From IMG/VR virus record IMGVR_UViG_3300044732_001058: 20,000 nt of DNA; one strand, given 5' to 3'. This stretch comes from an uncultured virus (IMG/VR IMGVR_UViG_3300044732_001058) (lineage: Duplodnaviria > Heunggongvirae > Uroviricota > Caudoviricetes). Both the position numbers and the translations under genes were made by a program. Positions 809-20,000 of the stretch are shown piece after piece; positions within the stretch are counted from its first letter, which is position 1, and each line of letters begins with the position of its first letter. Under the pieces are notes generated by a model that was not told the DNA's origin, did no database searches, and was given only the letters and a program-made list of their open reading frames with translations.

Positions 809-819
809 ATATTTACATT

Positions 820-2856: not shown

Positions 2857-2867
2857 GTTAATAATAG

Positions 2868-2873
2868 TTACAC
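2868..2873 (-). promoter_or_regulatory. GTGTAA motif upstream of the portal start (also at 820-825 and 8623-8628); candidate phage-sigma promoter element
   Basis: On the minus strand GTGTAA lies 11 nt before the protease ATG, 11 nt before the portal ATG and 13 nt before the phoH ATG. Each is followed by an AT-rich stretch with no Shine-Dalgarno sequence. Confidence 0.45.
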
Positions 2874-2876
2874 ATT

Positions 2877-2893
2877 GTCACTTTAAAAGTGAC
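2877..2893. promoter_or_regulatory. Inverted repeat GTCACTTT-A-AAAGTGAC between terL and portal (operator or hairpin)
   Basis: Perfect 8-bp arms around one base, followed by TTTTT on the plus strand and adjacent to the GTGTAA motif. Confidence 0.45.
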
Positions 2894-2903
2894 TTTTTAG
2901 CTT

Positions 2904-6740: not shown

Positions 6741-6741
6741 A

Positions 6742-7455: not shown

Positions 7456-7849
7456 CTATGTCTTGTATTGGGCGCGAACTACACTCCTTCAACGACTGAC
7501 TTAAAAATTCTTCTTTACTTAGTTTTCTATAATTGGAATTCGGTCTTGAATTAATTCTTTCACTTGGATCGACTGGGGGAGCGTTAAATAAATCTTTTCC
7601 TAAATATTTATTACCTGCTGGTTTTTCTATTTCGTATGAAAGCTTCGATGGTCTAACGAATACAGTGGGAATACCATCTTCATCGACTTCTGTATTTTGT
7701 TTGCGAGAGGTAGATCTCGATTGTAGTGAATTTTGTAAAGTCGGTTTACTGATGTTTGCAAATCCTCCCAAAGAAACCCCACAGTTAGTACAGAATTTAG
7801 AGCCTTGGGCATGTTTTGTTCCGCAACTTGAACAGTAAATATTACTCAT
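7445..7849 (-). CDS. Zinc-ribbon domain protein (134 aa)
   Basis: N-terminal YCSSCG-x7-KFCTNCG double CxxC. It overlaps the sigma factor start. Confidence 0.7.
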   Translation of the reverse strand: MSNIYCSSCGTKHAQGSKFCTNCGVSLGGFANISKPTLQNSLQSRSTSRKQNTEVDEDGIPTVFVRPSKLSYEIEKPAGNKYLGKDLFNAPPVDPSERINSRPNSNYRKLSKEEFLSQSLKECSSRPIQDIDES

Positions 7850-7859
7850 GGTTATTATA

Positions 7860-8609
7860 TCAATGAATGTTTGTTTTATCTAATCTCTTAAGAGAATGAA
7901 CGATGTATTTAAGAATTTCACTACGCATGATATCTTCTTCATTGAATTCAAAACAATAAATACCTCTTTCTTCGCTGTCTTTATTATTAAACAAATCATA
8001 AATTTTCATAAAACCAGATTTGTTTCCGATGTCTGATTGCATAGCGTCTCCGCAGATAAACATTTTAGTATTCTCGCCAATACGAGTGAGAAGAGTAATC
8101 AACTCCTTGCTGCTATAGTTCTGAGATTCGTCTGCAATAATGATCTTCTCGTTCCATGTAGCACCTCTTAAGAAGTTCACAGGCAAAGCCTCTATAATAC
8201 CACTAGTTTCAAGATATTTTGATTGAGACATGGGAATAAGTTCATCCAACTTATCATACAGTGGTATCATAAAAGGATTAAACTTTTCATCTACAGTTCC
8301 AGGCAAAGAACCTAAGCCTCTTTCTCCAGACTCGACGATTGTTCTAATGTATTTGATCTCGTACTTTGAATTCATATTTAACATATGCAATGCACAATAA
8401 ACAGCCAAAAATGTTTTAGAACTTCCGGCAGGTCCATTAATAAAAACAATTTTAGTATTTTTATCAAAAGCTATTTGAGTAAAACTTTTTTGCTTATCCG
8501 TTAAATTAAAATTCTTAATTGTTAATTTAGTCGATTTAAAACTATTATTTGAGATAATGTCGTTCAGATCGTGTTTTTCTTTTTGAATTTTTTTCTTTTT
8601 GATTGACAT
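7860..8609 (-). CDS. phoH: PhoH-family ATPase (249 aa)
   Basis: GPAGSSKT P-loop, LGSLPGTVDEKFNPF, EALPVNFLRGATW, IADESQN, LLTRIGENTKMFICGDAMQSD, EDIMRS. These are classic PhoH motifs, and phoH is a common phage auxiliary gene. Confidence 0.93.
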   Translation of the reverse strand: MSIKKKKIQKEKHDLNDIISNNSFKSTKLTIKNFNLTDKQKSFTQIAFDKNTKIVFINGPAGSSKTFLAVYCALHMLNMNSKYEIKYIRTIVESGERGLGSLPGTVDEKFNPFMIPLYDKLDELIPMSQSKYLETSGIIEALPVNFLRGATWNEKIIIADESQNYSSKELITLLTRIGENTKMFICGDAMQSDIGNKSGFMKIYDLFNNKDSEERGIYCFEFNEEDIMRSEILKYIVHSLKRLDKTNIH

Positions 8610-8636
8610 ACTATAAATAAATTTACACTATTATAT

Positions 8637-9701
8637 ATGGTTTTTCACTGTTTGAGCGTTCCTTACTCGCCTACTAGAAAAGATGTTTCATTATGTGCTT
8701 TTGTGCAAAAGGTTTATAAGTTTTGCGACGAAATGACTAAAAGGGGTCATACTGTTTATCATTATGGTCATGAAAACTCTATTGTTAATTGCACAGAACA
8801 TATTAATGTTACTAATAATGATATATTAATTAATAGCTATGGCAACTTAAATGATTGGAAGATCAAAGGTTTTGATCAAAACGTTAATACAAAAGCGGTT
8901 AATGCGTTTAATGACAATTGTGTTACAGAGTTAAAAAAAAGAATAAAATCAAGTAATGAATTTATATTATGCTGGTTTGGGTTCGCGCATGAACCATGTG
9001 TTAAACACTTTTATGATAAAACTATAGTAGTAGAACCAAGCATAGGTTATGATAGCATGTTCGCGCCAATTAAGATATTTGAAACATATAGTCAAATGCA
9101 TAAAATGCATGGTCATTCTAAAACACATGTTGAATTAGGATGCGAACATATTGTTTATCCCGGCTTTGATCCTGACGACTTCATATACAAAAAAGAAAAA
9201 TCAAATACAGCATTATTTTTAGGCAGGATTATAGAAGAAAAAGGCGCACAGCTTGCTTATGATATCTGCAATCATGTCGGACAAGATATTATATTTGCAG
9301 GGCCAAACATACTGAATCTTAAAGAGACTAAACATTGTAAATTTGCAGGATTCGTTGGTCCTATTGAACGAATGAATTTACTAAGCGATGCGAAATTTTT
9401 ATTTGCTCCTTCGTTGTTTATGGAGCCATGCAATTGGACAGTTATTGAAGCTCAATTTTCAGGAACGCCCACTATTACAACAAATTTCGGCGGCTTTACC
9501 GAAACGGTATTACAAGGAGATACAGGATTAAGATGTTCTACTACTAATGATATGATTTACGCCACTCAAAACATAGATAAACTTATCAATCCTGAAAATT
9601 GTTATAAAAACGCTAACTCAAGATTTACAATTAAACATCAGTGTGATTATTATGAATATATTTTTCGTAACCTATCTTTAACTCAGATAAGTCAGATGTA
9701 A
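8637..9701 (+). CDS. GT4 (group 1) glycosyltransferase (354 aa)
   Basis: KRGHTVYHY, LFLGRIIEEKG, PSLFMEPCNWTVIEAQFSGTPTITTNFGGFTE (EX7E motif). Confidence 0.85.
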   Translation: MVFHCLSVPYSPTRKDVSLCAFVQKVYKFCDEMTKRGHTVYHYGHENSIVNCTEHINVTNNDILINSYGNLNDWKIKGFDQNVNTKAVNAFNDNCVTELKKRIKSSNEFILCWFGFAHEPCVKHFYDKTIVVEPSIGYDSMFAPIKIFETYSQMHKMHGHSKTHVELGCEHIVYPGFDPDDFIYKKEKSNTALFLGRIIEEKGAQLAYDICNHVGQDIIFAGPNILNLKETKHCKFAGFVGPIERMNLLSDAKFLFAPSLFMEPCNWTVIEAQFSGTPTITTNFGGFTETVLQGDTGLRCSTTNDMIYATQNIDKLINPENCYKNANSRFTIKHQCDYYEYIFRNLSLTQISQM

Positions 9702-10008
9702 AAAATTTCTTTTGAAAATTTTGTTTTGCCATATGTCTTTGATAATTACAATAATCAACGTGTTGTGCGGTTACTTCATTATTTTTAGCTTTATTAACCG
9801 CATCAAATGTTAATTCATTAGCTTTAATCATACTTTCGTATTCTTTTGAATGCATCATGTGCGACCATTTTTCGTTATCAAATTGATTTTGTAAATACAC
9901 ATAACATTTGATCCAAGCATTATTAGATATAGAAGATTTTTGTTTTTTAACCTCTAAGATACTAAGATAATCAAATGCGTACGCTTCATCTACTAATAAA
10001 GTTATCAT
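9631..10008 (-). CDS. Hypothetical protein (125 aa), loosely DUF6165-like
   Basis: N-terminal FDYLSILEVKK recalls the D-K/Y-x-x-IL-E-I/V-K motif of small proteins found beside glycosyltransferases. It starts 2 nt after the stop of the giant glycosyltransferase. The family call is tentative. Confidence 0.5.
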   Translation of the reverse strand: MITLLVDEAYAFDYLSILEVKKQKSSISNNAWIKCYVYLQNQFDNEKWSHMMHSKEYESMIKANELTFDAVNKAKNNEVTAQHVDYCNYQRHMAKQNFQKKFFTSDLSELKIGYEKYIHNNHTDV

Positions 10009-10010
10009 TT

Positions 10011-13000
10011 TTATAATTCAATATGTATAATTACTTCAGTATAATATTGTAAAAAATGATCATTATAAAGATCCCATTTTATATCTGCGCCATCTAATGA
10101 ATAAATACTATAATTTTTAAATTTATTAATAGCGGTATCTCTAAAATCACGAAATTTATTTTTAAAATCATTATTACCCAAATGAAATTCAGCAACTAAA
10201 AATTTTACATTTGATTTCAAAATGTTTAAACAGTCCTCGCTAAATAAACCATATTCACTGCCTTCTATATCTATTTTTAGAAAATCTATTTTATTTATAT
10301 TTAATTTGTTTAAAAGGGTTTTGAAAGTAATAGCTTTGCATTCGTATGACTTATCATGGAAAATGTAACTGAAATCATTTTCACAAAAATCCGCACCATT
10401 ATTATCTATTGCGTAGTTCAAACATGTTACGTTTTTATAGTTTTTCATATTACTTTTTAATGTTGAAAACATTTCAAGTGATGACTCTACAGCATAAACG
10501 TGTTTAGGATTTTTATTTAAAACACTCATCACAAACGGACCAACACTAGCTCCTAAATCAACAACGATATCCCCTTCAGATACTTCGTTAACTTTTTCAT
10601 ATATTTTGTTTTCAAAAATTTCTTTCTTAACCGAATCCTCAAAAGAATCATCAATTTTTAACCATTCAAAATCATTATTTTTATTTTCTAAATCTAAAAT
10701 GCATTTATCTATTTTTTCTTTTACCATATCAAATGTAATTTCGCGAGAACATTCGAAATCTTTATCTCTAGGACACCAAAGCCAATTTGATCTATCGAAC
10801 GTACAATTCACATCGCTCCAACAACTGTTACAAACGTTTTTATTATGAACTCGATATGGTGTGTAAAATTCAGACTTAGGGTCTGAAAACCCAGAAATCA
10901 TTACGACAGATTTTTCGCAAGCCCATGCTAACCATGACAAGCCAGATCCTAAACCTATAAAAAATTCACAATGATATAAATCATTTATCCTGTCTTCCAG
11001 CGGCAAATCTCCAGTTTTATCTATAACATTTTTAGGAATAATATTCATTACGTCTTTCGCCCCATAACCATAATGCTTATCGATGCATACCACATCGTAA
11101 CCAAGTGAATTTAAATAGCTTACAACTTTAGTCCATCCTTCTTTATTGTTCCAGTATTTGCACTGGGCGGTAGATTGAGTCGCTATACAAACGTATTTTT
11201 TATTAAAATTAGATTTTTTTGTTTTATCAAAATTTAATTTGCATTTTTTTTCTTCATGTTTAATTCCTAAAATATTACTAGCAACTTCTTGTAAAGAGTA
11301 GGGTTTCCAATCGCTTTCATTAAAACAACCTATTTTATAAACGCCTTTCTCATCATCAGAAGGTTTTTCACAATAATCATAAAAATTAATCATGGGATAT
11401 TCATTAATAAATAATTCTTTATGTGGAGTATAATAATTTACTTTTTTTCTTTTTTGCAATGCGAATTCATTTACAATTGGAACCCAAGCTATAGCATCTC
11501 CCAAACTTCCAGATTCATTACAAATATTTATTTCTTGAGAATCTAAATTAATATTTTTATTTACATTTCCGACAATATAAAAATGCCTAATATAAGAAAA
11601 CCAATTATTAATATTAACAAATGAAGATAAATTATTTTTTAAATCATTCATCCCATTTGAGACGTTAGTATCTCTCTCTTCGTTAGAAATGTATTTATCG
11701 TCATAAAGTTTGTAAAAAATTATACGAGCATTTTTATTTTTAAGACTTGAAATTATATTTTTTATTTCGCTTGTGTCGTAATAGTTAAGCACGATCACAT
11801 ACACATCATGAAAAAAATTATTATTTATTGTTAAATTTTTATCAAAAAACAAATCGTTTAATAATTTAGCGTTTTGATTTTTAGTGAAAATAGACACGCT
11901 TTCATTGAAGTTTAAATCAAGATAATTTAAAGCGCAAGTTTCTTTATATAATGAAATAAATGTAGTGTCTACTAATGATTCTGAATTTATTAGTTTTTTA
12001 TAAGCTATATCAAAATTATTATTAAAACCTTTTGAGATCGGAGAATGAGATTCCGAATCTGGCCTGTACATCCATGTGTATAAATTTCTTGGTATGTGTA
12101 ACCACTTACCATATGAATTTACATACATTATATGATAAGAATCATTTGCACACGCGTTGAAATCTTTAATTAAAAATTCTAAATCTTTAATGTTTTTAAA
12201 ACATCTTAAATACCCAAGGGAATAATAATTTAAATTATTTAAATAATCAACAGACGGATGAAATTTATTTATTTTTGATTTTAAAACTTCATTATTATTC
12301 AATAAACCTAATGAATGTAAGTTTCCATTTGATTCTTCTATTTTTTTGAAATCACAAGTCATGAGACATATTGATTTATCATTAGATAAAAATTTGTTAT
12401 ATATACATAAAAAATTCAAATCAAAAAAATCGTCAGCATCTATCGCAACAATATATTCAAAACTTTTATCCATAAAAGCATTTGGTTGCCAATACATTTG
12501 TTTTTTAAACTGCTGTTCAACATATTTTATTTTATCTGTTTTTAAGGTTTTTAATTTATCTAATATTAAATCTTTAGTGTTGTCAGCGCTAAAATCATCA
12601 GTTATAAACCATGTAAAATTATTATATTTTAAATTTAAAATGTTATCAAAAATAGCGTTCACATATTTAGCGCTATTATAAAAAGAAGTGTACAAAGCGA
12701 ATTTTATTTCATTATTTTCGTTTAACGGCTTTGTATTTAAATTTTTTAATTTTTGCAAAATAAATTCAGATGTATTTATATCGTCTATCAAATAAAAATT
12801 ATTTTTTTCTAAATATTTATCTGTATAATTTGTACATTTTTTGCATACGACCTCCATATTCCAAGACAGCGCTTCTTTTACACTTAATGGATTCAATTCT
12901 TTATTAGATGGAAATAAAAACATATCCATGCATGACATAAACAAATCCACATCAGACCTCTCTCCCCAAACTTTGCAATTATGCAATAACAATTGGTCTT

Positions 13001-13715
13001 GAGGTATGTCACATTCATTTAAAAAACATGAATTACCAATAAAATGAAATTGTATTTTATAGTATTTTAATTTTTCCGCTAAATCGAAAATATATTTTTG
13101 ATTTTTATTTTGATTAAAAATTCCCACGTTTAAAACATGCAGATAGCTTGGATCTAGACCAAGAAGTTCTAAAGTATTTTCTCTATTTGGTCTTACATTA
13201 TTTGAAATAGGCACTTCCCAAATAGATTTTATGATGTTAATATTTTTTGATTTTTCTAAATGCAATTCAGAACAAAACATAAATTCATCTGGGATAAATA
13301 TCTTTTTATCAAAATCAAAACTGTTATTGTGTGTTGTTTCTATTATTTTATAAGCTCTATTCGGGCTATAAATTTTTTTTATTAATTCTTCTGGAGGTGA
13401 TTTATATTCAAAACATTCAGGAAACTCATTAAACCAAACAACATCAGGATTGTATTCTTGAATAATATTTAATAATTTAAATTTTTTAAATTGAAATGTG
13501 AAGTCATCTTCCCAAAAGTCGCCTAAACAAATAACATTTTCTTCACCGATTAAATTTTTAATTTTGTTTTTTTGAATTACATAGTCATTAGAGAAATTGG
13601 AAAACTCAATTACTTTTATGGCCTCGTATTTATTTTTATTATTTAATATGAACTGATATAAATATTCAGGACAACCACCTGTAGATAGATGTGGATTAAC
13701 TATTAAAATTTTCAT
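10011..13715 (-). CDS. Multidomain glycosyltransferase/methyltransferase (1234 aa): GT4-like + GT2-like + Aah/TibC-type O-heptosyltransferase + FkbM methyltransferase
   Basis: GT4-like: PHLSTGG...VGIFNQNKNQ...FLFPSNKELNPLSVKEALSW. GT2-like: YTSFYN...ITDDFSADNT...IDADD. Aah/TibC-like: SLGDAIAW...YVCIATQSTAQCKYWNN...FFIGLGSGLSWLAWA...ISGFS...VCNSCW...WCPR...FECSREIT. FkbM: VVDLGASVGPF...IDFLKIDIEGSE. Confidence 0.85.
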   Translation of the reverse strand: MKILIVNPHLSTGGCPEYLYQFILNNKNKYEAIKVIEFSNFSNDYVIQKNKIKNLIGEENVICLGDFWEDDFTFQFKKFKLLNIIQEYNPDVVWFNEFPECFEYKSPPEELIKKIYSPNRAYKIIETTHNNSFDFDKKIFIPDEFMFCSELHLEKSKNINIIKSIWEVPISNNVRPNRENTLELLGLDPSYLHVLNVGIFNQNKNQKYIFDLAEKLKYYKIQFHFIGNSCFLNECDIPQDQLLLHNCKVWGERSDVDLFMSCMDMFLFPSNKELNPLSVKEALSWNMEVVCKKCTNYTDKYLEKNNFYLIDDINTSEFILQKLKNLNTKPLNENNEIKFALYTSFYNSAKYVNAIFDNILNLKYNNFTWFITDDFSADNTKDLILDKLKTLKTDKIKYVEQQFKKQMYWQPNAFMDKSFEYIVAIDADDFFDLNFLCIYNKFLSNDKSICLMTCDFKKIEESNGNLHSLGLLNNNEVLKSKINKFHPSVDYLNNLNYYSLGYLRCFKNIKDLEFLIKDFNACANDSYHIMYVNSYGKWLHIPRNLYTWMYRPDSESHSPISKGFNNNFDIAYKKLINSESLVDTTFISLYKETCALNYLDLNFNESVSIFTKNQNAKLLNDLFFDKNLTINNNFFHDVYVIVLNYYDTSEIKNIISSLKNKNARIIFYKLYDDKYISNEERDTNVSNGMNDLKNNLSSFVNINNWFSYIRHFYIVGNVNKNINLDSQEINICNESGSLGDAIAWVPIVNEFALQKRKKVNYYTPHKELFINEYPMINFYDYCEKPSDDEKGVYKIGCFNESDWKPYSLQEVASNILGIKHEEKKCKLNFDKTKKSNFNKKYVCIATQSTAQCKYWNNKEGWTKVVSYLNSLGYDVVCIDKHYGYGAKDVMNIIPKNVIDKTGDLPLEDRINDLYHCEFFIGLGSGLSWLAWACEKSVVMISGFSDPKSEFYTPYRVHNKNVCNSCWSDVNCTFDRSNWLWCPRDKDFECSREITFDMVKEKIDKCILDLENKNNDFEWLKIDDSFEDSVKKEIFENKIYEKVNEVSEGDIVVDLGASVGPFVMSVLNKNPKHVYAVESSLEMFSTLKSNMKNYKNVTCLNYAIDNNGADFCENDFSYIFHDKSYECKAITFKTLLNKLNINKIDFLKIDIEGSEYGLFSEDCLNILKSNVKFLVAEFHLGNNDFKNKFRDFRDTAINKFKNYSIYSLDGADIKWDLYNDHFLQYYTEVIIHIEL

Positions 13716-15585
13716 TTATTATTGATTTTATTTGTTTTAATACTTCGTCTGAATTTGGTTGACAACGCATCGTTTCGTAGTTTTCTTGACATCTTGGTAA
13801 ATAATGAACAGCATTTATACTGTTCCATTCTCTAACAGAATATTTAAGATTACTAGCGCAAAACAAAGAACATTCACCGTTAACAAATATATGTTTATAT
13901 TTTTGAGAGCCTTTTCTATAAGGAGTGTTAAATTCTGGATGTCTTGCGGAACCTATTTGAACAATCCAAGTATCTGTCGTTCCAGCTAAATGCAATGGTC
14001 CAGAATCTAAAGTAACAATAGCTTTTGCATTATTAATAATATGCCAAAGATCATTTATAGAACTGCCATCATTGCTTATGTCTATTACGTTTTGCCCCAA
14101 CGGTACAAAACATTTTTTATAACAAATAGATTTATCAAAGTTAACTTCTTCATGATCTTTTCCAATAACTACCACATTGAAACCTAGGTGAGATATATTG
14201 TCGGAAAGTTTTTGCCAATTTTCTTGGCTCCACGTTCTATTTTCCCAATTAGATGTAGTGTGCAAACATATATAATTACCAAAATTTTTAATTTCATAAA
14301 TGCAATTATTTGTTGGAAAAAAATCTAATTGTAACTCATCGCTCGTTAAATCAAAACCTAAATCATATGCACAACTTCTTTCTGTGCAACACGCATGATG
14401 TTTTCTTAAAGATTCTGTTTCGTTTAATTTATGAGTTGAGTGTCGTTCAAAAATACTAAAAACTTCGTATTGAGACTTATCTACTGTTTCGTTCAATTTA
14501 AAATTATTTTCTATGTATGGATTATTTTTGAATAAGTCGTAGTGATTAGAAATGATAGATATTTTTGAAGAATAAATGTTAGACAGTTTTTTTATGGCTG
14601 GCGTACTTGTTAAAGCATCGCCCATACCAACAGCGTTAATTATTAATAATATCTTTCGATCAGACGAGTAAATATTAATAGGATTGTTCTGTTTATTTTT
14701 GTAAATAATTTCTGTTTCTAGGATTTTATAATTGGTTGGATTCGGGCGTCCATGCAAAAAGATAATATTTTGAATTTTTTGCTTCTCTGGTATTCTACAA
14801 AAATCTTTAAGAAAGAAAGAGTTATCGGAAGGGTTATTAAATGCGGAAACCAATGTATTTACTTCGTCTAATGGTATATTAATATGTATGTGATCAAAAT
14901 TAGCATTATAATCGTATTTCCACAACAAACAATTTAAGACGCTTTCTTCATTCATTGCCGCCAAGTATTTATTTTTTATTATTTCTGGGCGATAACAAAT
15001 ATTATACCACTCCTTAAAAAGATCCAAGCTATTTTTATTAAAAAGTAATAAATTACATTGTTTATAAAAGCTATCACGTTTTTGTATCGAAACATTTAGA
15101 AACCTCATCAAATCAGCTTCTAAACATTTATTTACATTTAAATTATTATTTTCGTCATATGGATTACCATGACCATCCATTAACATATATTCATAACAAT
15201 TTAACGGCAAAATAGGATGATTTATATTATCGTTAATCTTGTTAAATAGAAAATCCGCATTCTTGATAAGCATCATGTCAGAATCTATGCAACAATAATT
15301 ATTGTTCTCTTTCGTATTTAAAATCTCTAGACATAAATTAGCTTTCAAATACAACATGTATTTTTTTGTCCAATGTTGCATTTCATCATCGTTTAAGTCA
15401 TACGGCAAAAAACGAGTATGATCAAAATCGTATCTAATAGGAATTACATTATCAAATTTATTTTCGTAATCAAAATTTATTGTATAATAAATGATTTTAT
15501 AAGAAGAGTACTCTTGTAAAGTCTTAAATAGTCTTTCGGCAATGTGTGTATAATTTTTATCTGAATAAGTGAAATAATAATTCAT
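13696..15585 (-). CDS. Two-domain glycosyltransferase (629 aa): GT-A (DxD) domain + GT9 ADP-heptose transferase-like domain
   Basis: N-terminal YLKA...CIDSDM...NEESVLN...FLHG. C-terminal GMGDALTSTPAIKKL, ICLHT...RTWSQENW, IVTLDSGPLHLAGT. Confidence 0.8.
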   Translation of the reverse strand: MNYYFTYSDKNYTHIAERLFKTLQEYSSYKIIYYTINFDYENKFDNVIPIRYDFDHTRFLPYDLNDDEMQHWTKKYMLYLKANLCLEILNTKENNNYCCIDSDMMLIKNADFLFNKINDNINHPILPLNCYEYMLMDGHGNPYDENNNLNVNKCLEADLMRFLNVSIQKRDSFYKQCNLLLFNKNSLDLFKEWYNICYRPEIIKNKYLAAMNEESVLNCLLWKYDYNANFDHIHINIPLDEVNTLVSAFNNPSDNSFFLKDFCRIPEKQKIQNIIFLHGRPNPTNYKILETEIIYKNKQNNPINIYSSDRKILLIINAVGMGDALTSTPAIKKLSNIYSSKISIISNHYDLFKNNPYIENNFKLNETVDKSQYEVFSIFERHSTHKLNETESLRKHHACCTERSCAYDLGFDLTSDELQLDFFPTNNCIYEIKNFGNYICLHTTSNWENRTWSQENWQKLSDNISHLGFNVVVIGKDHEEVNFDKSICYKKCFVPLGQNVIDISNDGSSINDLWHIINNAKAIVTLDSGPLHLAGTTDTWIVQIGSARHPEFNTPYRKGSQKYKHIFVNGECSLFCASNLKYSVREWNSINAVHYLPRCQENYETMRCQPNSDEVLKQIKSIINENFNS

Positions 15586-15586
15586 T

Positions 15587-16192
15587 TTATTTTATTAAAA
15601 ACCAGCTTCCAAACCATTCGTCTTCAGTAATATGAAACTTATAATTATTTTCTTTACAAAATTCTTGAACAGCGGGGTTAACTCCAAACTGTCCAGCATA
15701 ATTACCATTGTTAAAGTATATATGTTTATTAATTCCATCTTCTGCGAAATTTTTATCAGCAAACCAATCCATTTTTATAAAATCATGTCCAGCAAAAATA
15801 CCACCTTTTCTTAATTTAGAAAACCATAGTTTAATGTCAGCTTTCACAAATTCATATTTATGGTTAGCGTCTAAATAAATAAAGTCAAGAGATTCATCGT
15901 TAAATAGTTTAACTGCGTTTTCACTGTTAGTTCTTATCATGTGGCATCTGTCTTCATGACCAGAAATGTTTTTACAACATTTATACATAACATTTATATA
16001 GTCTTGTCTGTTGCATGAGTCAGAGTATTCGGCGTTATTAACTTTGCGCCATATATCTATTAAATACAAATCTCCTTTCCATGTTTTTAATATTTCTGAC
16101 GCGTATTCGCCTTCATAAGTACCGATTTCTACTGCTCTACCTAATTTATATTTAGATTGGAAAAGGTTTATTAATTCTATTCTATTTTTCAT
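15587..16192 (-). CDS. Class I SAM-dependent methyltransferase (Methyltransf_24-like, 201 aa)
   Basis: VEIGTYEG, LIDIW, LDFIYLDANHKYE..KADI..W..KLRKGGIFAGHDF, GVNPAVQEF. Confidence 0.85.
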   Translation of the reverse strand: MKNRIELINLFQSKYKLGRAVEIGTYEGEYASEILKTWKGDLYLIDIWRKVNNAEYSDSCNRQDYINVMYKCCKNISGHEDRCHMIRTNSENAVKLFNDESLDFIYLDANHKYEFVKADIKLWFSKLRKGGIFAGHDFIKMDWFADKNFAEDGINKHIYFNNGNYAGQFGVNPAVQEFCKENNYKFHITEDEWFGSWFLIK

Positions 16193-16997
16193 AGACGTTT
16201 TTTATTTTGCTGATATCGGCGCATGAGTGGCGCACTTCTTTCTTCGCTTCCTTGTATATTATATGACTACCGAATTGTTTTGCAAGCGAGTTTATAGAAA
16301 TAGATTTGCCGATCCCTATATTAAATATCTCATTCTTTACTACAGTGATTATTAATCTAGAAACGTAATTACACACATCGCTAACACTGACGAAATCCCT
16401 AGTCTGTTCACCATCTCCATAAACGATCAGCGGCTCTTTTTTCTGAGCGGCGACATTAAATGCCGTTATGACTCCAGCGTATTGCGGATTCTGTCCTTCA
16501 CCATACACATTGAAGAAGCGAAATATTAAATAATCAATACCCCATTGTTGGCAATACATTTGTATGTATTTTTCGGAGGCTAACTTATCTAATCCGTATG
16601 GACTGTTAGGTTCGGCGGCATCAGTTTCACTCACCGTACCTTCTTTGCTGCCATATACCGCTGCGCTAGAAGCGAAGACGAATTTCTTAATCTTATGAAG
16701 GTGGGCGGCTGATAATAATTTTATAGTACAGAACGTATTATTGCCAAAGCTATTTATTGGATCTTCAAATGATTTCGGTACACTCACCATACCAGCTAGA
16801 TGAATGATAGTGTCTATATTATCGAAAAAGATATCGTTAACGTCGATATCTAGTATATCTATTATCTTTTGTTTGTCGGGCGGCAGTGCGGGGCTGCTAA
16901 TTTTGTCCAGATTATAAATGTCATGTCCGTCATTAGATAGTTTTTTTATTAAATGGGTGCCAATAAAGCCGCTGCCACCAGTAATCAATATTCTCAT
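16182..16997 (-). CDS. NAD-dependent NDP-sugar epimerase/dehydratase (GalE-like extended SDR, 271 aa)
   Basis: ITGGSGFIG, IIHLAG, FASSAAVYG, SPYGLDK (YxxxK), RFFNVYG, GDGEQTRDFV. Confidence 0.92.
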   Translation of the reverse strand: MRILITGGSGFIGTHLIKKLSNDGHDIYNLDKISSPALPPDKQKIIDILDIDVNDIFFDNIDTIIHLAGMVSVPKSFEDPINSFGNNTFCTIKLLSAAHLHKIKKFVFASSAAVYGSKEGTVSETDAAEPNSPYGLDKLASEKYIQMYCQQWGIDYLIFRFFNVYGEGQNPQYAGVITAFNVAAQKKEPLIVYGDGEQTRDFVSVSDVCNYVSRLIITVVKNEIFNIGIGKSISINSLAKQFGSHIIYKEAKKEVRHSCADISKIKNVYEK

Positions 16998-17350
16998 ATA
17001 TAGTATTGTATATTATTTTGCGTGTTCAGGTATTCTATAGCGTTATAGAGAATAGATATATCATCATTGAATCGCCCAATGCCTAAATTACAACTGTTGC
17101 ATATATACCCGCGAAATGTATCGTCAAAATGACAATGATCTAATATCCAAACCGTTGTGTGATTTTTGCAGATGGGACATGGCCCAGCAATAGGTGGGCG
17201 GTTCTGGGCGCGGAGGTTTCGGCGCAAGGAACTGAGTTCGTTATTACACGATCTGCATGTGTTTTTGCGGCCAGCATCGTTCGTAGAGAAAAAGGGGAAC
17301 TCAATTATATCTTTTTCTTTCTTACAGTTTCGGCAGATCTTGATAGACAT
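16994..17350 (-). CDS. Endonuclease VII-family (His-Me finger) nuclease with N-terminal zinc finger (118 aa)
   Basis: CRNC...CRSC, then CPIC...LDHCH...FRGYICNSCNLGIGRFNDD, the recombination endonuclease VII signature. Confidence 0.85.
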   Translation of the reverse strand: MSIKICRNCKKEKDIIEFPFFSTNDAGRKNTCRSCNNELSSLRRNLRAQNRPPIAGPCPICKNHTTVWILDHCHFDDTFRGYICNSCNLGIGRFNDDISILYNAIEYLNTQNNIQYYI

Positions 17351-17357
17351 TTATTAT

Positions 17358-17366
17358 ATTATATCA
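17358..17366 (-). promoter_or_regulatory. Extended -10 element TGATATAAT upstream of the endonuclease VII gene (same 9-mer at 7854-7862 upstream of the zinc-ribbon gene)
   Basis: Minus strand reads TGATATAAT-ataataa-ATG (start 17350) and TGATATAAT-aacc-ATG (start 7849). The background is AT-rich, so chance matches are possible. Confidence 0.45.
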
Positions 17367-17370
17367 TACG

Positions 17371-17480
17371 TAGAAAACATGGGTTTTTTTATTTTTTGTT
17401 TATAGAAAATATGGGTTCGTATTTTTTTTGTTTTTTGTTTATAGAAATATAGCGTTTTTATGTTTTTTTTATAGGAAAAG
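17371..17480. repeat. Degenerate AT-rich tandem repeat, about 3.5 copies of TAGAAAAYATGGGTT-Tn-GTTTA (~30-39 bp)
   Basis: TAGAAAACATGGGTT at 17371, TAGAAAATATGGGTT at 17403, TAGAAATATAGCGTT at 17442 and TAGGAAA at 17472, separated by T-tracts. Confidence 0.6.
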
Positions 17481-17670
17481 GGGGGAGGGTATGGATTGTG
17501 TTGTTGTTGAGATAAGAAGAAGGAGATATAATAGATAGATATAATATGATGGTTAACTATGTTAAGGATTATAATGTTTAAGAATTTGGGGTTTGAGAGA
17601 TTGAGAATAACCTCCCCCCGCCTATATCACACAAAAGTCAAGAACTTTTTTTTTAAAAAAACGGGGGGGG

Positions 17671-17707
17671 TTGGCATGGCAAATGCTGGGAGCATAACGC
17701 GTGCCAA
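17671..17707. promoter_or_regulatory. Face-to-face pair of sigma54 -24/-12-like sites (sites 1 and 2)
   Basis: Plus TTGGCATGGCAAATGCT (17671-17687), then GGG, then minus TTGGCACGCGTTATGCT (17691-17707). Confidence 0.7.
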
Positions 17708-17758
17708 CCTACTGCGGCCAGGCCATCAAAAAAAAGTGAGAAAAAAAGCAGATAAAAA

Positions 17759-17787
17759 TTGACGACCTGCAAAATTTCGTGCATTGT
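17759..17787 (+). promoter_or_regulatory. sigma70-type promoter for a leaderless transcript
   Basis: A-tract UP-like region, TTGACG (17759-64), 17 bp, CATTGT (17782-87), 6 nt, ATG at 17794. Confidence 0.6.
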
Positions 17788-17793
17788 ATGTAC

Positions 17794-18030
17794 ATGAAAA
17801 ACGAAATGACGGTCCTGAAGATCAGCAAGTTCAAGAGCGTGGTTCTGGTCTCGGTGACGTACCGATTGGCGAACGGTGAAGTCCGTGTGGCTTCTGGCAA
17901 GACCGAAAGCGAAGCAATGGCGAACATGACAACCGAGACGACGAAAGTCCTTGACTTCGCCCCGCTTGCAAAACGGAGCGATAGCGGAACAAGCTTCCGA
18001 AACAACCGAGGCATGATGGTCGAGGTCTGA
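17794..18030 (+). CDS. Small hypothetical protein (78 aa, MKNEMTVLKISKFKSVV...)
   Basis: The track calls 17779..18030 from an upstream non-ATG codon. I moved the start to ATG 17794, which matches the predicted +1. Confidence 0.7.
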   Translation: MKNEMTVLKISKFKSVVLVSVTYRLANGEVRVASGKTESEAMANMTTETTKVLDFAPLAKRSDSGTSFRNNRGMMVEV

Positions 18031-18049
18031 AAAAAAAGTGAAAAAAAAG

Positions 18050-18078
18050 TAGACAGAAAACGCCAACTCGACTAAGGT
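18050..18078 (+). promoter_or_regulatory. sigma70-type promoter for a leaderless transcript
   Basis: AAAAAAAAGTGAAAAAAAAG, then TAGACA (18050-55), 17 bp, TAAGGT (18073-78), 6 nt, ATG at 18085. Confidence 0.65.
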
Positions 18079-18084
18079 AACACC

Positions 18085-18255
18085 ATGACAAACGACTTCG
18101 CCAACATCAACGCCGAGAGCAACATGAGCAGCATGACCACCCTGAGCTTCGAAGAAATCATCGAAGCCAACGCATGGTTCGACATGGTTTCCGCTCAATT
18201 CGACGAAGTCGAAGCGGCATGGGATCGCCTTGTTGAATACGTTGACAACATCTAA
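18085..18255 (+). CDS. Small acidic hypothetical protein (56 aa)
   Basis: Not in the ORF track. Manual translation: MTNDFANINAESNMSSMTTLSFEEIIEANAWFDMVSAQFDEVEAAWDRLVEYVDNI*. It has 12 D/E, 1 R and no K, strongly biased codons, and a promoter placed at its ATG. Confidence 0.75.
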   Translation: MTNDFANINAESNMSSMTTLSFEEIIEANAWFDMVSAQFDEVEAAWDRLVEYVDNI

Positions 18256-18287
18256 CACAACAACAACAACTTTAATACAATAACAAT

Positions 18288-18491
18288 ATGTCAAAACAAT
18301 CTCTCTCTATCAATCAAATCATTCAGTTGCGCCAAGGTCTAGAACTACGTATCACAGAACTACAAAAGCGCATTGATCAGTGCAATGACATTAATCTGCC
18401 CGGTACTGCAAAACTTTGGCAAACCGATTTGAATGAAGTTACCGCAATGCAAAACATATTGAATTCTTGTTACACTGTAACTCTTGAATAA
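18288..18491 (+). CDS. Small helical protein, paralogue A of a C-x3-N-x7-W family (67 aa)
   Basis: Aligns without gaps to 18548..18733 and 19673..19864 (C32, N36, W44). It has an (AAC/AAT)-rich leader. Confidence 0.75.
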   Translation: MSKQSLSINQIIQLRQGLELRITELQKRIDQCNDINLPGTAKLWQTDLNEVTAMQNILNSCYTVTLE

Positions 18492-18503
18492 AAGGTAATA
18501 CAA

Positions 18504-18529
18504 TAAGGGCTGTACTAGTACAGCCCTTA
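18504..18529. repeat. Perfect 26-bp palindrome TAAGGGCTGTACTAGTACAGCCCTTA
   Basis: Self-complementary over 26 bp, intergenic between paralogues A and B, with no U-tract after it. Confidence 0.85.
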
Positions 18530-18547
18530 CAATAACAATATAATAAC

Positions 18548-18733
18548 ATGCAAGACATTAACAACAACGAACTCGCCACCCTTCGTATCGCTCTTATGGA
18601 TAAGATAGATAAGATGGATAGAATCATCAAAGAGTGCGAAAAGACAAACGATCAGCTTAGTAAGTTATATTGGGAAGAAGCTATTGTTAAACACAACGAA
18701 TTGTTAAACAAGTTGTATGATATGCAGAGATAG
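18548..18733 (+). CDS. Small helical protein, paralogue B (61 aa)
   Basis: 17 of 61 positions identical to paralogue C in an ungapped alignment (hand count), including C30, N34, Y41 and W42. Confidence 0.8.
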   Translation: MQDINNNELATLRIALMDKIDKMDRIIKECEKTNDQLSKLYWEEAIVKHNELLNKLYDMQR

Positions 18734-18747
18734 TAATACAATAGCGC

Positions 18748-18786
18748 AGCAAGAAGCGTGCCAACCACCTTGGCACGCTATCTGCT
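18748..18786. promoter_or_regulatory. Back-to-back pair of sigma54-like sites (sites 3 and 4)
   Basis: Minus TTGGCACGCTTCTTGCT (18748-64), then CCACC, then plus TTGGCACGCTATCTGCT (18770-86). Confidence 0.75.
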
Positions 18787-18829
18787 CCCCCCCCCCCCCC
18801 CCCGGGGGGGGGGGGAGGGGGGGGTGGGG
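18787..18829. repeat. Cn-Gn inverted homopolymer tract 1 (C17 G12 A G8 T G4)
   Basis: Read directly; homopolymer lengths may be imprecise. Confidence 0.75.
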
Positions 18830-18833
18830 CCTT

Positions 18834-18850
18834 AGCAAGGCCCGTGCCAA
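18834..18850 (-). promoter_or_regulatory. sigma54-like site 5 (full consensus match)
   Basis: Minus TTGGCACGGGCCTTGCT, pointing into tract 1 from the right. Confidence 0.75.
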
Positions 18851-18865
18851 CCTATCCGCCAACCC

Positions 18866-19057
18866 TCAGTATACGTCGTCAACGTATTGGTTCGCGTCGT
18901 CTGCGACATCGTCGTAGACAGGCTCTGCGACATCGTCGCAGGTTGGGACGTTGTCCACCGTGTTGTCCTCGGTGCCGTTGTACGCACCGTAGAACTCCTC
19001 GGGCGCGACGGTGGCGAAACTGGCGACTTCGTTCTGCGGGTCAATCATTGAATTCAT
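18866..19057 (-). CDS. Very acidic small protein (63 aa), DNA-mimic candidate
   Basis: C-terminal part of track ORF 18866..19360, restarted at ATG 19057: MNSMIDPQNEVASFATVAPEEFYGAYNGTEDNTVDNVPTCDDVAEPVYDDVADDANQYVDDVY. It has 16 D/E and no K/R, and a promoter placed at this ATG. Confidence 0.7.
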   Translation of the reverse strand: MNSMIDPQNEVASFATVAPEEFYGAYNGTEDNTVDNVPTCDDVAEPVYDDVADDANQYVDDVY

Positions 19058-19063
19058 GCGTAA

Positions 19064-19092
19064 AGAGTAGGCTGGAAACCTTTCGGACACAA
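19064..19092 (-). promoter_or_regulatory. sigma70-type promoter for a leaderless transcript
   Basis: Minus strand TTGTGT (19092-87), 17 bp, TACTCT (19069-64), 6 nt, ATG at 19057. Confidence 0.6.
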
Positions 19093-19135
19093 GAAAAAAA
19101 TGCAAAAAAAGAAAAAAAAATATGCAAAAAAAAGC

Positions 19136-19165
19136 TTGACACAGCCAACCGCGCATGAGTATAAT
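19136..19165 (+). promoter_or_regulatory. Consensus sigma70 promoter with no credible downstream start codon
   Basis: A-tracts at 19091-19133, TTGACA (19136-41), 18 bp, TATAAT (19160-65). It is divergent from the 19064-19092 promoter. Confidence 0.75.
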
Positions 19166-19184
19166 GGGGTATCGCAAGGGGATA

Positions 19185-19220
19185 CCCCCCCCCCCCCCCC
19201 CCCCGGGGGGGGGGGGGGGG
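19185..19220. repeat. Cn-Gn inverted homopolymer tract 2 (C20 G16)
   Basis: Read directly. It is preceded by the inverted repeat GGGGTATC-gcaaggg-GATACCCC (19166-19188). Confidence 0.75.
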
Positions 19221-19221
19221 A

Positions 19222-19290
19222 AGCAAGAAGTGTGCCAAGAGGTTGGCATGATATCTGCTGGGAGCAAGTACCGTGCCAAGTGCGCGCCAA
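19222..19290. promoter_or_regulatory. Cluster of three sigma54-like sites (6, 7, 8) plus a weaker overlapping one
   Basis: Minus TTGGCACACTTCTTGCT (19222-38), GAGG, plus TTGGCATGATATCTGCT (19243-59), GGG, minus TTGGCACGGTACTTGCT (19263-79). A degenerate minus TTGGCGCGCACTTGGCA spans 19274-90. Confidence 0.75.
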
Positions 19291-19396
19291 GATTAAAAAA
19301 AGATTTTTGCGATTTTTCTCGACTTCGTGCGAAGATTTCAAGTGTAAACGTCAGGTCCACGCTCGAAAGAAAGTGAAAAAAAATATACGAAAGATG

Positions 19397-19425
19397 TGGA
19401 CGAATCTCAGCCTTTCGTCTAATCT
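19397..19425 (+). promoter_or_regulatory. sigma70-type promoter for a leaderless transcript
   Basis: AAAGTGAAAAAAAA upstream, TGGACG (19397-402), 17 bp, TAATCT (19420-25), 6 nt, ATG at 19432. Confidence 0.65.
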
Positions 19426-19431
19426 TTGGGC

Positions 19432-19620
19432 ATGGAAAACGAAATCAAATGGTCGGATCTGGTGGACATCGAAGTTGACGGTGGCACTTCAACGGTGGCT
19501 TACGTCACAAGCGCATTCAGCAAGGTGCTGAATCGGGAACTCACGGAAGATGAGTGCGAGGCGGTCACTGCGAAGTTCTCTCGCGAGATGTACGAATTGG
19601 AGTTCAACAGGAAGTACTAA
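19432..19620 (+). CDS. Small acidic hypothetical protein (62 aa, MENEIKWSDLVDIEVDGG...RELTEDECE...)
   Basis: Track ORF 19426..19620 restarted at ATG 19432, the predicted +1. It has 14 D/E and 7 K/R. Confidence 0.75.
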   Translation: MENEIKWSDLVDIEVDGGTSTVAYVTSAFSKVLNRELTEDECEAVTAKFSREMYELEFNRKY

Positions 19621-19672
19621 CAACAACAACAGTAGTAGTAATACTACAATAACCTTTTATATAAATAACAAC

Positions 19673-19864
19673 ATGAAAAACATTTCTTATACTGAGCGCG
19701 TTGCAATCATGGCGGCTCTTAACATTCGTTTGTCACAGATTGACGATGAAATCAAATTGTGTCAGAAGCTCAACAACGAAGACAGTGTTATATACTGGAG
19801 CAAAGAGCGTCAAACACTAGATGACGCATTCAATAAATTTACTGATTTAGTGATAAGTCAGTGA
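19673..19864 (+). CDS. Small helical protein, paralogue C (63 aa, MKNISYTERVAIMAAL...)
   Basis: 3' part of track ORF 19550..19864. ATG 19673 follows an (AAC)n leader and aligns from residue 1 with paralogue B. Confidence 0.8.
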   Translation: MKNISYTERVAIMAALNIRLSQIDDEIKLCQKLNNEDSVIYWSKERQTLDDAFNKFTDLVISQ

Positions 19865-19881
19865 TAGTAGTATAACGGTAC

Positions 19882-19920
19882 AGCACAAAGTGTGCCAACC
19901 ATCTTGGCACGGCATCTGCT
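19882..19920. promoter_or_regulatory. Back-to-back pair of sigma54-like sites (sites 9 and 10)
   Basis: Minus TTGGCACACTTTGTGCT (19882-98), then CCATC, then plus TTGGCACGGCATCTGCT (19904-20). The layout is the same as sites 3 and 4. Confidence 0.75.
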
Positions 19921-19983
<63 letters not shown>

Positions 19984-20000
19984 CCCAAACACACAAACCC

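Follow-up and report, generated by a model that had tools for sequence, protein, structure and literature searches.

A conserved array of sigma-54-type sites in inverted pairs in the early region of an uncultured lake phage

Why would a phage carry ten copies of what looks like a bacterial sigma-54 (RpoN) promoter element within a short stretch of its early region, most of them in inverted pairs, and what binds them? The question arises from a 20,000-base stretch of DNA (the window) from an uncultured aquatic (lake) phage. The phage belongs to an abundant group: its terminase has over 2,000 relatives at E <= 1e-20, and at least 93% of the window's sampled words are present in each of 14 lake-water runs.

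Geometry of the array and its surroundings

The pattern TTGGCAYRNNNNNTGCT has exactly 10 matches in the window, compared with a mean of 0.00 matches to TTGGCAYR-N5-TGCT in dinucleotide-preserving shuffles (n = 200). All ten coordinates and strands reported in an earlier note on this DNA were recovered, and its remark that the 17-mer is missing from the first 17.6 kb agrees with our full-window scan, in which there was no match upstream of 17671. Information content is 2 bits at ten invariant positions, about 1 bit at the Y and R positions and 0.1-0.7 bit at the five middle positions, which bears out the free variation of the middle bases noted earlier. The sites are as follows.

Site 1, 17671..17687, plus strand: TTGGCATGGCAAATGCT, face-to-face with site 2 across GGG, at the border of leftward late genes and rightward early genes
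Site 2, 17691..17707, minus strand: TTGGCACGCGTTATGCT, 51 nt ahead of the -35 element belonging to the 17759 promoter
Site 3, 18748..18764, minus strand: paired back-to-back with site 4 (gap 5 bp), antisense to gene 18548-18733 at its 3' end
Site 4, 18770..18786, plus strand: TGCT end directly abuts a CnGn palindrome
Site 5, 18834..18850, minus strand: faces site 4 across the palindrome
Site 6, 19222..19238, minus strand: TGCT end abuts a palindrome, sense towards gene 19057-18866
Site 7, 19243..19259, plus strand: back-to-back with site 6 (4 bp), face-to-face with site 8 (GGG)
Site 8, 19263..19279, minus strand: partner of site 7 across GGG
Site 9, 19882..19898, minus strand: antisense to the 3' end of gene 19673-19864
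Site 10, 19904..19920, plus strand: TGCT end abuts a CnGn palindrome

Two geometries recur, as the earlier note had described: three back-to-back pairs (18748/18770, 19222/19243 and 19882/19904, with gaps of 5, 4 and 5 bp) and two face-to-face pairs with GGG between them (17671/17691 and 19243/19263). Additionally, a 47-nt CnGn palindrome separates 18770(+) from 18834(-), which point towards each other. The sites are interspersed with promoters, hairpins and small genes.

17759..17796, plus strand: sigma-70-type leaderless promoter (TTGACG-N17-CATTGT-N6-ATG) of gene 17794-18030, preceded by A-tracts
18050..18087, plus strand: sigma-70-type promoter of the same TTGACG type, gene 18085-18255
18787..18829, no strand: C17 then a G-rich tract, a self-complementary hairpin or cruciform between sites 4 and 5
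19136..19165, plus strand: consensus sigma-70-type promoter TTGACA-N18-TATAAT, directed into hairpin 2, the CnGn tract and sites 6-8
19166..19220, no strand: hairpin 2 (GGGGTATC..GATACCCC) then a C20/G16 palindrome
19397..19434, plus strand: sigma-70-type promoter of the TTGACG type, gene 19432-19620
19921..20000, no strand: third C/G palindrome, extending past the window end
17794-18030, 18085-18255, 18866-19057 (minus strand) and 19432-19620: G+C-rich small genes, GC3 about 0.7
18288-18491, 18548-18733 and 19673-19864: A+T-rich helical paralogues

The pattern TTGACG-N17-CATTGT-N6-ATG has 4 window matches, against a mean of 0.02 in 100 shuffles, and the unit of TTGACA-N18-TATAAT promoter, hairpin and CnGn tract occurs 6 times over the window and three related records (L004, L082 and L090). 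The 91-nt stretch around the palindrome of sites 4 and 5 folds as DNA at -36.2 kcal/mol (z -3.5); the lengths of its C17 and G tracts are uncertain because assemblies break at these tracts. None of the seven small genes within 17794..19864 belongs to a known family.

The orientation of the sites relative to genes is mixed. The earlier claim that they mostly do not face genes was too strong, as about half do: sites 1, 2, 6, 7 and 8 have a sense-oriented gene about 100-390 nt downstream, and site 10 is probably also sense-facing, by analogy with L003 and L082. What stands of that claim is that sites 3, 4, 5 and 9 (4 of 10) point antisense into the 3' ends of genes; the single sites of a second lineage (G003/G004) are all antisense. 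It was also correct that sites 1 and 7 are each opposed by another site 3 bp away and that the ORFs behind them have their own sigma-70-type promoters, which we located at 17759 and 19397, with a further one at 18050.

Conservation and likeness to sigma-54 elements

The earlier note had held that a motif not conserved in relatives would argue against function. Across 23 related virus records (549 kb) we found 122 sites versus 0 of the reversed control, and in each record the sites form one cluster of at most 3.2 kb. Sites in unique contexts are almost invariant, with 92 matching all 12 specified positions and only 10 carrying one mismatch. In the near-identical record L004 the array extends by two further sites past the window end. 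Within-pair spacing varies (3, 4, 5, 8, 20-21 and 33 nt), even for the homologous border pair, whose sites lie 3 nt apart in the window versus 33 nt in L082 and L090, and the asymmetry of the 17-mer is kept in every case. Thus, the sites work singly, with direction. We conclude that the ten sites are real, selected protein-recognition elements.

In the 17-mer, GG and GC are separated by exactly 10 bp, as they are in the sigma-54 consensus TGGCAC-N5-TTGC. Sigma-54 holoenzyme binds -24/-12 DNA as a closed complex and is, to our knowledge, the only holoenzyme of bacteria that can occupy DNA in a silent state. Phage-like contigs with the same site pair occur in two bacterial genome bins, and each of these bins also encodes a sigma-54 DNA-binding domain, although binning of phage-like contigs with rpoN-bearing bacteria is weak evidence of host. 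With those contigs left out, the strict 17-mer occurs 5 and 11 times in the two bins, versus 1 and 1 in the control. At 14 of these 16 bacterial sites an ORF of at least 60 aa begins 18-165 nt downstream in the same orientation, and one site lies 76 nt upstream of a type IV pilin gene. Among 31 genomes of the bins' order there were 121 strict sites versus 31 in the control. Variants with another base at position 1 or 17 were barely enriched (7 versus 6 and 11 versus 7; 6 versus 4 and 21 versus 5), so the extra invariant T's of the phage sites match sigma-54's own preference. The earlier identification of the motif as a sigma-54 -24/-12 element is thereby strengthened: judged by its letters, the 17-mer is indistinguishable from the best-consensus form of that element, which makes host sigma-54 holoenzyme the most likely candidate binder.

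The phage sites nevertheless are not built like ordinary promoters: they include inverted pairs and antisense members, have G/C-rich DNA downstream, and their neighbours have promoters of their own. G+C makes up 83% of the three nucleotides that follow TGCT in 86 phage sites, versus 35% in 16 bacterial sites. A G/C-rich stretch where a sigma-54 promoter must melt fits sites that may bind polymerase but fire poorly. Binding without firing is documented in the accessible portion of the E. coli sigma-54 map (PMC4591121), as are many antisense or intragenic sites; the natural E. coli sites described there are looser than the ~100 near-identical phage sites.

These features bear on the idea that the elements are activator-dependent sigma-54 promoters of the usual kind, timed by a phage or host enhancer-binding protein, with sense transcripts of the next unit and antisense transcripts of the early unit before it. 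The lambda cII-dependent promoters PRE and PaQ form a comparable temporal switch. The full consensus, the sense orientation of window sites 1, 2, 6, 7 and 8, the position of all four plus-strand sites in L082 about 135-235 nt before genes, and a border pair that points into the late and early blocks alike would all suit such promoters, and a sigma-54-like promoter is reported for phage YuA in the available part of a later paper (bioRxiv 10.1101/2023.10.13.562163). We consider this reading distinctly improbable. The region to melt is G/C-rich, up to pure C tracts, and a purine start is not conserved; face-to-face sites 3 nt apart are mutually exclusive because each start point falls within the partner site; sigma-70-type promoters already serve the genes; and we recognised no upstream activator sites. 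Additionally, two sets of related records, all of them fragments (3-30% complete), gave no match to the activator domain PF00158 (0 of 4 and 0 of 19).

Candidate binders and roles of the array

Our preferred explanation, to which we give a probability of roughly 0.4, is that the elements are sites for host sigma-54 polymerase that may serve, depending on their orientation, as boundaries or gates within repeated regulatory cassettes. Each putative cassette would consist of a long hairpin, the 17-mer and a sigma-70-type promoter, and would bound a small early transcription unit. Some sites stand where early units end, some follow a strong promoter that fires into a CnGn hairpin, and some mark the early/late border; they are present in both orientations, or else their TGCT end faces oncoming transcription. 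Polymerase bound at the sites could stop or insulate transcription, incidentally tying up sigma-54; given an activator, these sites could later give rise to both sense and antisense transcripts.

The decoy or roadblock system conjectured in the earlier note draws partial support from these data: the sites form one confined cluster, sigma-70-type promoters stand nearby and the region to be melted is G/C-rich. The density of sites is 10 in 2.25 kb of phage DNA versus ~1 strict site per Mb in bacteria, and one phage array equals about three bacterial chromosomes in perfect sites, so titration is arithmetically possible. A more far-reaching version, which we regard as unlikely, treats closed, non-firing sigma-54 polymerase as a structural protein in widespread aquatic phages, both an insulator between early units and a sink for sigma-54; each genome would then carry a dozen or more perfect sigma-54 sites at its early-region border. 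In its bolder form, cruciform-prone palindromes would let the complex open without an activator.

A different binder, namely a phage-encoded or other non-sigma-54 DNA-binding protein whose operators resemble sigma-54 elements by coincidence, is less probable than host sigma-54 but is the alternative we take most seriously. Such a protein would switch a special early promoter class on or off, like T4 MotA boxes or repressor operators. In the G003/G004 lineage a site stands exactly 6 nt upstream of the -35-like TTGTTA of a TTGTTA-N16/17-CACTTT promoter; two polymerases would hardly fit together at this distance, and a small regulator suits it better. Of nine matches to this pattern five are site-linked and share a TGTGAC..CACTTT core, a promoter type found only beside a site. 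Clusters of 6-8 sites at 20-24 bp start-to-start, about two helical turns, look like operator clusters, and the near-invariance of the sites and the absence of a sigma-54 activator from the 23 records point the same way. A small helical protein family is kept in both lineages; in the window, the back-to-back pairs at unit ends (18748/18770 and 19882/19904) each follow directly on a gene for a paralogue. Moreover, the window was singled out in a very large scan for the very likeness of its motif to sigma-54 elements, so that chance likeness of a phage operator is not negligible.

Against coincidence, the likeness to sigma-54 spans the GG-N10-GC core, the Y/R degeneracy and the T preference at positions 1 and 17, which an unrelated protein would have no reason to share, and no DNA-binding family or fold was assigned to any candidate binder. 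A dimer that spans the pair is hard to reconcile with the 30-bp insertion tolerated between the border-pair sites. Face-to-face pairs with the same motif and 3-nt spacing also occur in phage contigs retrieved by searching for that very pattern: two (L021 and L157) have no detectable similarity to the window's phage family, and a third (C29) shares only a GP88-like gene and tRNAs with it. The sigma-54 reading presupposes a host with rpoN. Late genes lack Shine-Dalgarno sequences, early genes are leaderless and one relative carries tRNAs for A/T-ending codons, traits that would also fit hosts without rpoN such as cyanobacteria and actinobacteria. Also against the sigma-54 reading, a scan of 22 and 87 ORFs from records 3-30% complete found no sigma-54 domain.

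The sites and palindromes could instead be DNA-level elements for recombination, replication or packaging, that is, junctions for cassette shuffling like the PeSL elements discussed below, iterons of an origin whose G tracts are prone to R-loops, or sites bound by terminase. The early region has a mosaic structure: the module of gene 18866-19057 has opposite orientations in the window and in L082 and is flanked on either side by CnGn palindromes, and contigs from RNA libraries carry replaced segments. A strong promoter is directed into the C/G tracts, an A+T-rich repeat region adjoins the border pair, and many contigs terminate in the array. However, homopolymer tracts that break assemblies account for the contig ends, homologous recombination does not need a strictly conserved bipartite 17-mer with a free middle, and several clusters between genes over at least 3 kb fit a single origin or packaging site poorly. 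The genes beside the arrays included neither a recombinase nor an initiator, as far as they were identified, and we consider a DNA-level role very improbable. Hairpin promoters of the N4 type for a virion RNA polymerase were also considered, but no giant polymerase gene was found in these incomplete genomes; the 3,820-aa and 3,593-aa ORFs of relatives match only tail-fibre and virion-protein families.

Known systems and significance

The earlier note knew of no described phage system like this one. Partial precedents do exist, as far as the available portions of the reports show. Pseudomonas phage YuA is reported to have one sigma-54-like promoter region (bioRxiv 10.1101/2023.10.13.562163) and Pectobacterium phage Q19 encodes a sigma-54-like protein, gp2 (PMC7693777), and both are precedents for phages using or imitating the sigma-54 system. 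They differ from our case in that YuA has a single promoter region rather than an inverted-pair array with hairpins, and that no protein like gp2 was found in the fragments examined here. Closer in layout are the promoter-early stem-loop (PeSL) elements of T4-type phages, composite promoter/terminator cassettes (PMC4122927, in the part accessible to us), in which, as here, a short repeated stem-loop is combined with an early sigma-70-type promoter between small variable genes of a mosaic region. The cassettes described here add a more strongly conserved sigma-54-type 17-mer and have far longer hairpins, with CnGn tracts of 16-25 bp, and the phage is not T4-like (terminase <28% identical to that of any cultured phage).

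In Tus-Ter, RTP-Ter and TTF-I/Reb1 terminators, asymmetric sites, often in opposed pairs, set by their orientation which direction is blocked. The phage sites would resemble them in working principle only. The E. coli sigma-54 sites share the bipartite element with GG and GC 10 bp apart, whereas the phage sites are dense, near-perfect, arranged in inverted pairs with gaps of 3-7 bp and beside long hairpins, and followed by G/C-rich DNA, a comparison limited to the accessible text of the map (PMC4591121).

That same text treats the role of many 'silent' sigma-54 sites as an open question. The phage family provides a compact, conserved and natural system in which to address it, combining perfect sites in fixed geometries with strong sigma-70-type promoters and hairpins of great length. 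Should sigma-54 prove to be the binder, the array would be the first known example of a virus that uses closed complexes as insulators, roadblocks or decoy, or of an early/late switch gated by sigma-54. If a phage protein binds instead, that protein would have copied the recognition code of sigma-54, and the cassettes would represent a new class of phage regulatory element.

The site array and its setting

The window contains exactly ten copies of the motif TTGGCAYR-N5-TGCT, all within 2.25 kb (17671-19920), in agreement with an earlier note in count, placement and strand, and a pattern count confirmed that the first 17.6 kb hold none. The 17-mer was absent from 200 dinucleotide-preserving shuffles of the window. 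The pair geometries described by the earlier note also hold: back-to-back pairs occur three times, separated by 5, 4 and 5 bp, and face-to-face pairs twice, with GGG in between. A C17/G-rich palindrome separates sites 18770 (+) and 18834 (-), which face each other, and the TGCT ends of sites 6 and 10 (numbered by position) also adjoin CnGn palindromes, self-complementary tracts of a C run followed by a G run.

Positions 1-17350 form the late region of a tailed phage, with low G+C (about 0.24-0.38).

Recognizable features of the window late region
Large terminase subunit
678-aa ORF adjoining the terminase, without family match, portal by position only
ERCC4-type nuclease
6742-7455 (-), sigma-70-like protein
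PhoH
Glycosyltransferase/methyltransferase island
Endonuclease VII

From 17500 on, G+C climbs to 0.44-0.50 across seven small early genes without a Pfam or PHROG family; in Atlas, the small early proteins matched only viral clusters without names and helical-hairpin look-alikes of a generic kind. GC3 is about 0.7 in the G+C-rich early genes versus about 0.25 in late genes of the same phage. An A+T-rich stretch (17400-17470), with three TTTATAGAAA-like repeat copies and long T runs, has endonuclease VII on one side and, on the other, the border pair of sites (17671/17691) between leftward late and rightward early genes. Three early genes (18288-18491, 18548-18733 and 19673-19864), paralogous to one another, encode helical proteins of ~65 aa, of a family present in 10 of 17 sources compared and in both main lineages; one of these paralogues is the gene immediately ahead of each of the unit-end back-to-back pairs 18748/18770 and 19882/19904.

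Recurrence across diverged phages

The closest record to the window, a virus fragment of 37 kb with a completeness rating of 25%, is identical over window bases 1-18258. No cultured phage is close by DNA, and none by terminase above 28% identity. The terminase has more than 2,000 relatives. The window terminase has 621 aa and lacks the PF14528/PF14890 insert; many close relatives (P0002, P0003, P0049 and others) carry both domains in about 1,025-1,060 aa, several of the long ones being labelled 'intein/homing endonuclease' by a source. At least part of the window was found in 20 public runs, of which 14 are lake-water runs, each with at least 93% of the sampled words.

In pattern scans of a viral collection, many contigs proved to carry arrays of this motif. 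The 23 related records searched whole (548,701 bases added up) contain 122 strict sites versus none for the reversed 17-mer; the sites of each record lie within a single stretch no longer than about 3.2 kb, in many cases where a contig ends. The observation is confirmed and extends to a large phage group. DNA alignment of the window with two records of a relative lineage (G003/G004) covers only 460 bases at 67% identity, and the PhoH region shares about 36% identity with a G003-lineage contig in translated comparison; judged by these alignments, the array-bearing lineages are deeply diverged. Families encoded on the early side of these two records include YopX, DUF932, DUF2958 and GP88, together with a lytic transglycosylase and a protein with a histone-deacetylase domain; some of them are characteristic of anti-defence islands and of the leading regions of plasmids.

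With every 41-nt context counted a single time over 39 loci, 92 unique contexts match all twelve specified positions, 10 have one mismatch and 24 have two, the last mostly outside clusters. These 92 contexts hold 57 different 17-mers, bearing out the claim that the middle bases vary, with biases towards purine at position 9 and pyrimidine at position 12. Additionally, about 90% of sites have G or C at the second and third bases past TGCT.

Pairs, hairpins and neighbouring promoters

Among 91 unique-context sites with sufficient flank, an inverted partner follows the TGCT end at 3-8 nt in 45 and at 20-33 nt in six, and 36 have a back-to-back partner 4-7 nt ahead of the TTGGCA end. At least 16 of the 91 lead into a near-perfect hairpin within 8 nt, a lower bound because the simple finder used misses bulged stems.

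Hairpin types beside sites, by locus
CnGn tract: window, L004, L082, L090
ATAGTTTTC...GAAAACTAT: L008, L009, L010, L017
GAGAGTTGC...GCAACTCTC: L097

Next to single sites the hairpin can be weak, as at L010:1500-1590, where folding does not exceed that of shuffles, and thus not every site has a hairpin as its constant partner. RNA structure was rejected as the conserved feature: stems are kept in sequence, without covariation, and the middles are unpaired, as the earlier note had argued for the middles of paired sites. A known RNA family was likewise rejected, all Rfam matches being chance hairpins below thresholds.

The sites are asymmetric and selected at every specified base, and they appear to work singly, because within-pair spacing is not fixed and the border pair tolerates an insertion of 30 bp. 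Thus, they would be read by a protein in an orientation-dependent manner.

Neighbouring ORFs were said to have their own sigma-70-type promoters, and these were found. The G+C-rich small genes are preceded by A-tracts and then T[TAG]GAC[AG]-N17-YAnnnT-N6-ATG, in which the -35 element is TTGACG-like and ATG falls 6 nt past the -10 element. This pattern has four window matches versus a shuffle mean of 0.02, and the G+C-rich early genes apparently give leaderless mRNAs. A second arrangement, found six times, is a consensus TTGACA-N18-TAYAAT promoter aimed directly at a short hairpin (10-bp stem, 3-nt loop), a CnGn tract and then a site, TGCT side first; its product may be a short RNA, an R-loop or supercoiling alone.

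Promoters and associated elements
Window 17759-17796, leaderless sigma-70-type promoter
Window 18050-18087, leaderless sigma-70-type promoter
Window 19397-19434, leaderless sigma-70-type promoter
L082 1196, 1490, 2380, 3227 and 3426, leaderless early-gene promoters of the same type
Window 19136-19221, promoter/hairpin/CnGn unit
L004 2881 and 4667 (-), promoter/hairpin/CnGn units
L082 2264 (-) and 1867 (-), promoter/hairpin/CnGn units
L090 938, promoter/hairpin/CnGn unit
L009 about 1267-1300, TGTGA-N4-TCAC palindrome and CCCTTG repeats; equivalents in L006, L008, L010, L017 and L097

The G003/G004 lineage has single intergenic sites, antisense to both flanking genes, with a hairpin on the TGCT side; exactly 6 nt off the other side is a -35-like TTGTTA, and CACTTT comes after a further N16/17. 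In its cassette promoters a small TGTGA-N4-TCAC palindrome overlaps the -10 region and CCCTTG repeats occupy the short leader; both may be further regulatory sites. In our reading, which is not a statistic, RNA polymerase from the preceding unit or a strong promoter meets the TGCT end first; the one departure is an L082 junction at which the gene already has a canonical terminator behind it and the opposing site stands alone. RNA-library contigs, which carry no start, end or strand information, span the small genes. The contigs of the four runs examined break at C/G tracts.

The module with the MNSMIDPQNE... gene is inverted between window 18787-19221 and L082 1775-2216. Self-complementary CnGn tracts lie at both of its borders, and thus recombination between the palindromes is suggested as the route of inversion.

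Sigma-54 and other candidate readers

Bacterial genomes support sigma-54 as the identity of the element. With phage-like contigs excluded, two gammaproteobacterial bins contain 5 and 11 copies of the strict 17-mer versus 1 and 1 of the control, and an ORF of at least 60 aa in the same orientation starts 18-165 nt downstream of 14 of these 16 sites. One site lies 76 nt upstream of a type IV pilin, a classical RpoN-dependent gene in Pseudomonas. Across 31 genomes of the same order there are 121 strict sites versus 31 control matches, about one per Mb, with at least one in 29 genomes; the window, by comparison, packs ten into 2.25 kb. Variants with non-T at position 1 or 17 are hardly enriched in the bacteria, and thus the phage's extra invariant bases coincide with a bacterial sigma-54 preference. 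The flanks differ: G+C of the three bases past TGCT is 83% at 86 phage sites versus 35% at the 16 bacterial sites, and of twelve bases 62% versus 44%, even though overall G+C is lower in the phages.

Both bins carry a sigma-54 DNA-binding domain, and each holds one of the two phage-like contigs on which a scan of one genome per bacterial species found the full face-to-face pair (L157, G006:C726; L158/L181, G005:C29). These could be virus contigs placed in the wrong bin, or a clue to host range. No Shine-Dalgarno sequences precede the late genes, and L152 of record G003 encodes seven tRNAs at 8313-10909 (Asn-GTT, Lys-TTT, Met-CAT, Ile-TAT, Leu-TAA, Arg-TCT and Gln-TTG), all but Met for A/T-ending codons, a hint that the host has a higher G+C than the phage. 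Absent Shine-Dalgarno sequences, leaderless early genes of high GC3 and A/T-codon tRNAs fit several host groups, some without rpoN.

Of the traits of a sigma-54 promoter, which include position, activator, host and start site, the phage element has so far matched the sequence. Plain activator-dependent sigma-54 promoters are an improbable reading. The sigma-54 activator domain PF00158 was not found in the 23 related records, all fragments, and no sigma-54 domain was detected among 22 window ORFs and 87 ORFs from fragmentary records of relatives. A phage-encoded or other factor as binder is unlikely, if clearly less so than plain promoters; in one lineage, the fixed 6-nt distance to a -35-like element would accommodate a small regulator more readily than another polymerase. 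The phage's sigma-70-like protein (6742-7455) was rejected as reader: in our reading, the two blocks of the site lie about 12 bp apart centre-to-centre, too close for -35/-10, and no common -10 lies behind the sites. This protein belongs to a conserved family of 229-237 aa (also L153 4534-5226 and L149 4078-4767) with N-terminal sigma-70 region 2 and, by reading of the sequence, a cysteine-rich insert and a region-4-like C-terminus. It is encoded between PhoH and terminase and probably serves the phage as a late sigma factor of its own. An N4-like virion polymerase with hairpin promoters was also rejected, as the giant ORFs are tail-fibre-like. These ORFs, of 3,820 aa (L148 3683-15145, record G001) and 3,593 aa (L155 5315-16096), are built from modules of tail-fibre and virion-protein type in repeats.

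It is very unlikely that the sites act at the DNA level, in recombination, replication or packaging; a lambda cosB-like terminase site was considered as well. The format would fit the target of a type I restriction enzyme, but such targets are ones that a phage would be expected to lose, not accumulate.

Host sigma-54 holoenzyme is the putative binder, at slightly better than even odds, and our main reading, that its sites have a boundary, gating or decoy role, has a probability of roughly 0.4. The decoy or roadblock interpretation of the earlier note is partly supported: what stands established is the sequence, with binding, barrier action and titration as inferences. Silent holoenzyme binding is documented at many E. 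coli sites, and the YuA promoter and the sigma-54-like gp2 of phage Q19 are earlier cases of phages that touch the sigma-54 system. Taken as a whole, the cassette operates in the manner of PeSL promoter/stem-loop cassettes, known from T4-type phages; unlike them, it has an extra element, in a phage unrelated to that group. In literature outside most subscription journals, we found no account of a phage in which inverted sigma-54 sites form arrays together with C/G palindromes. The site array is an unusual, compact and directly testable feature of these phages.
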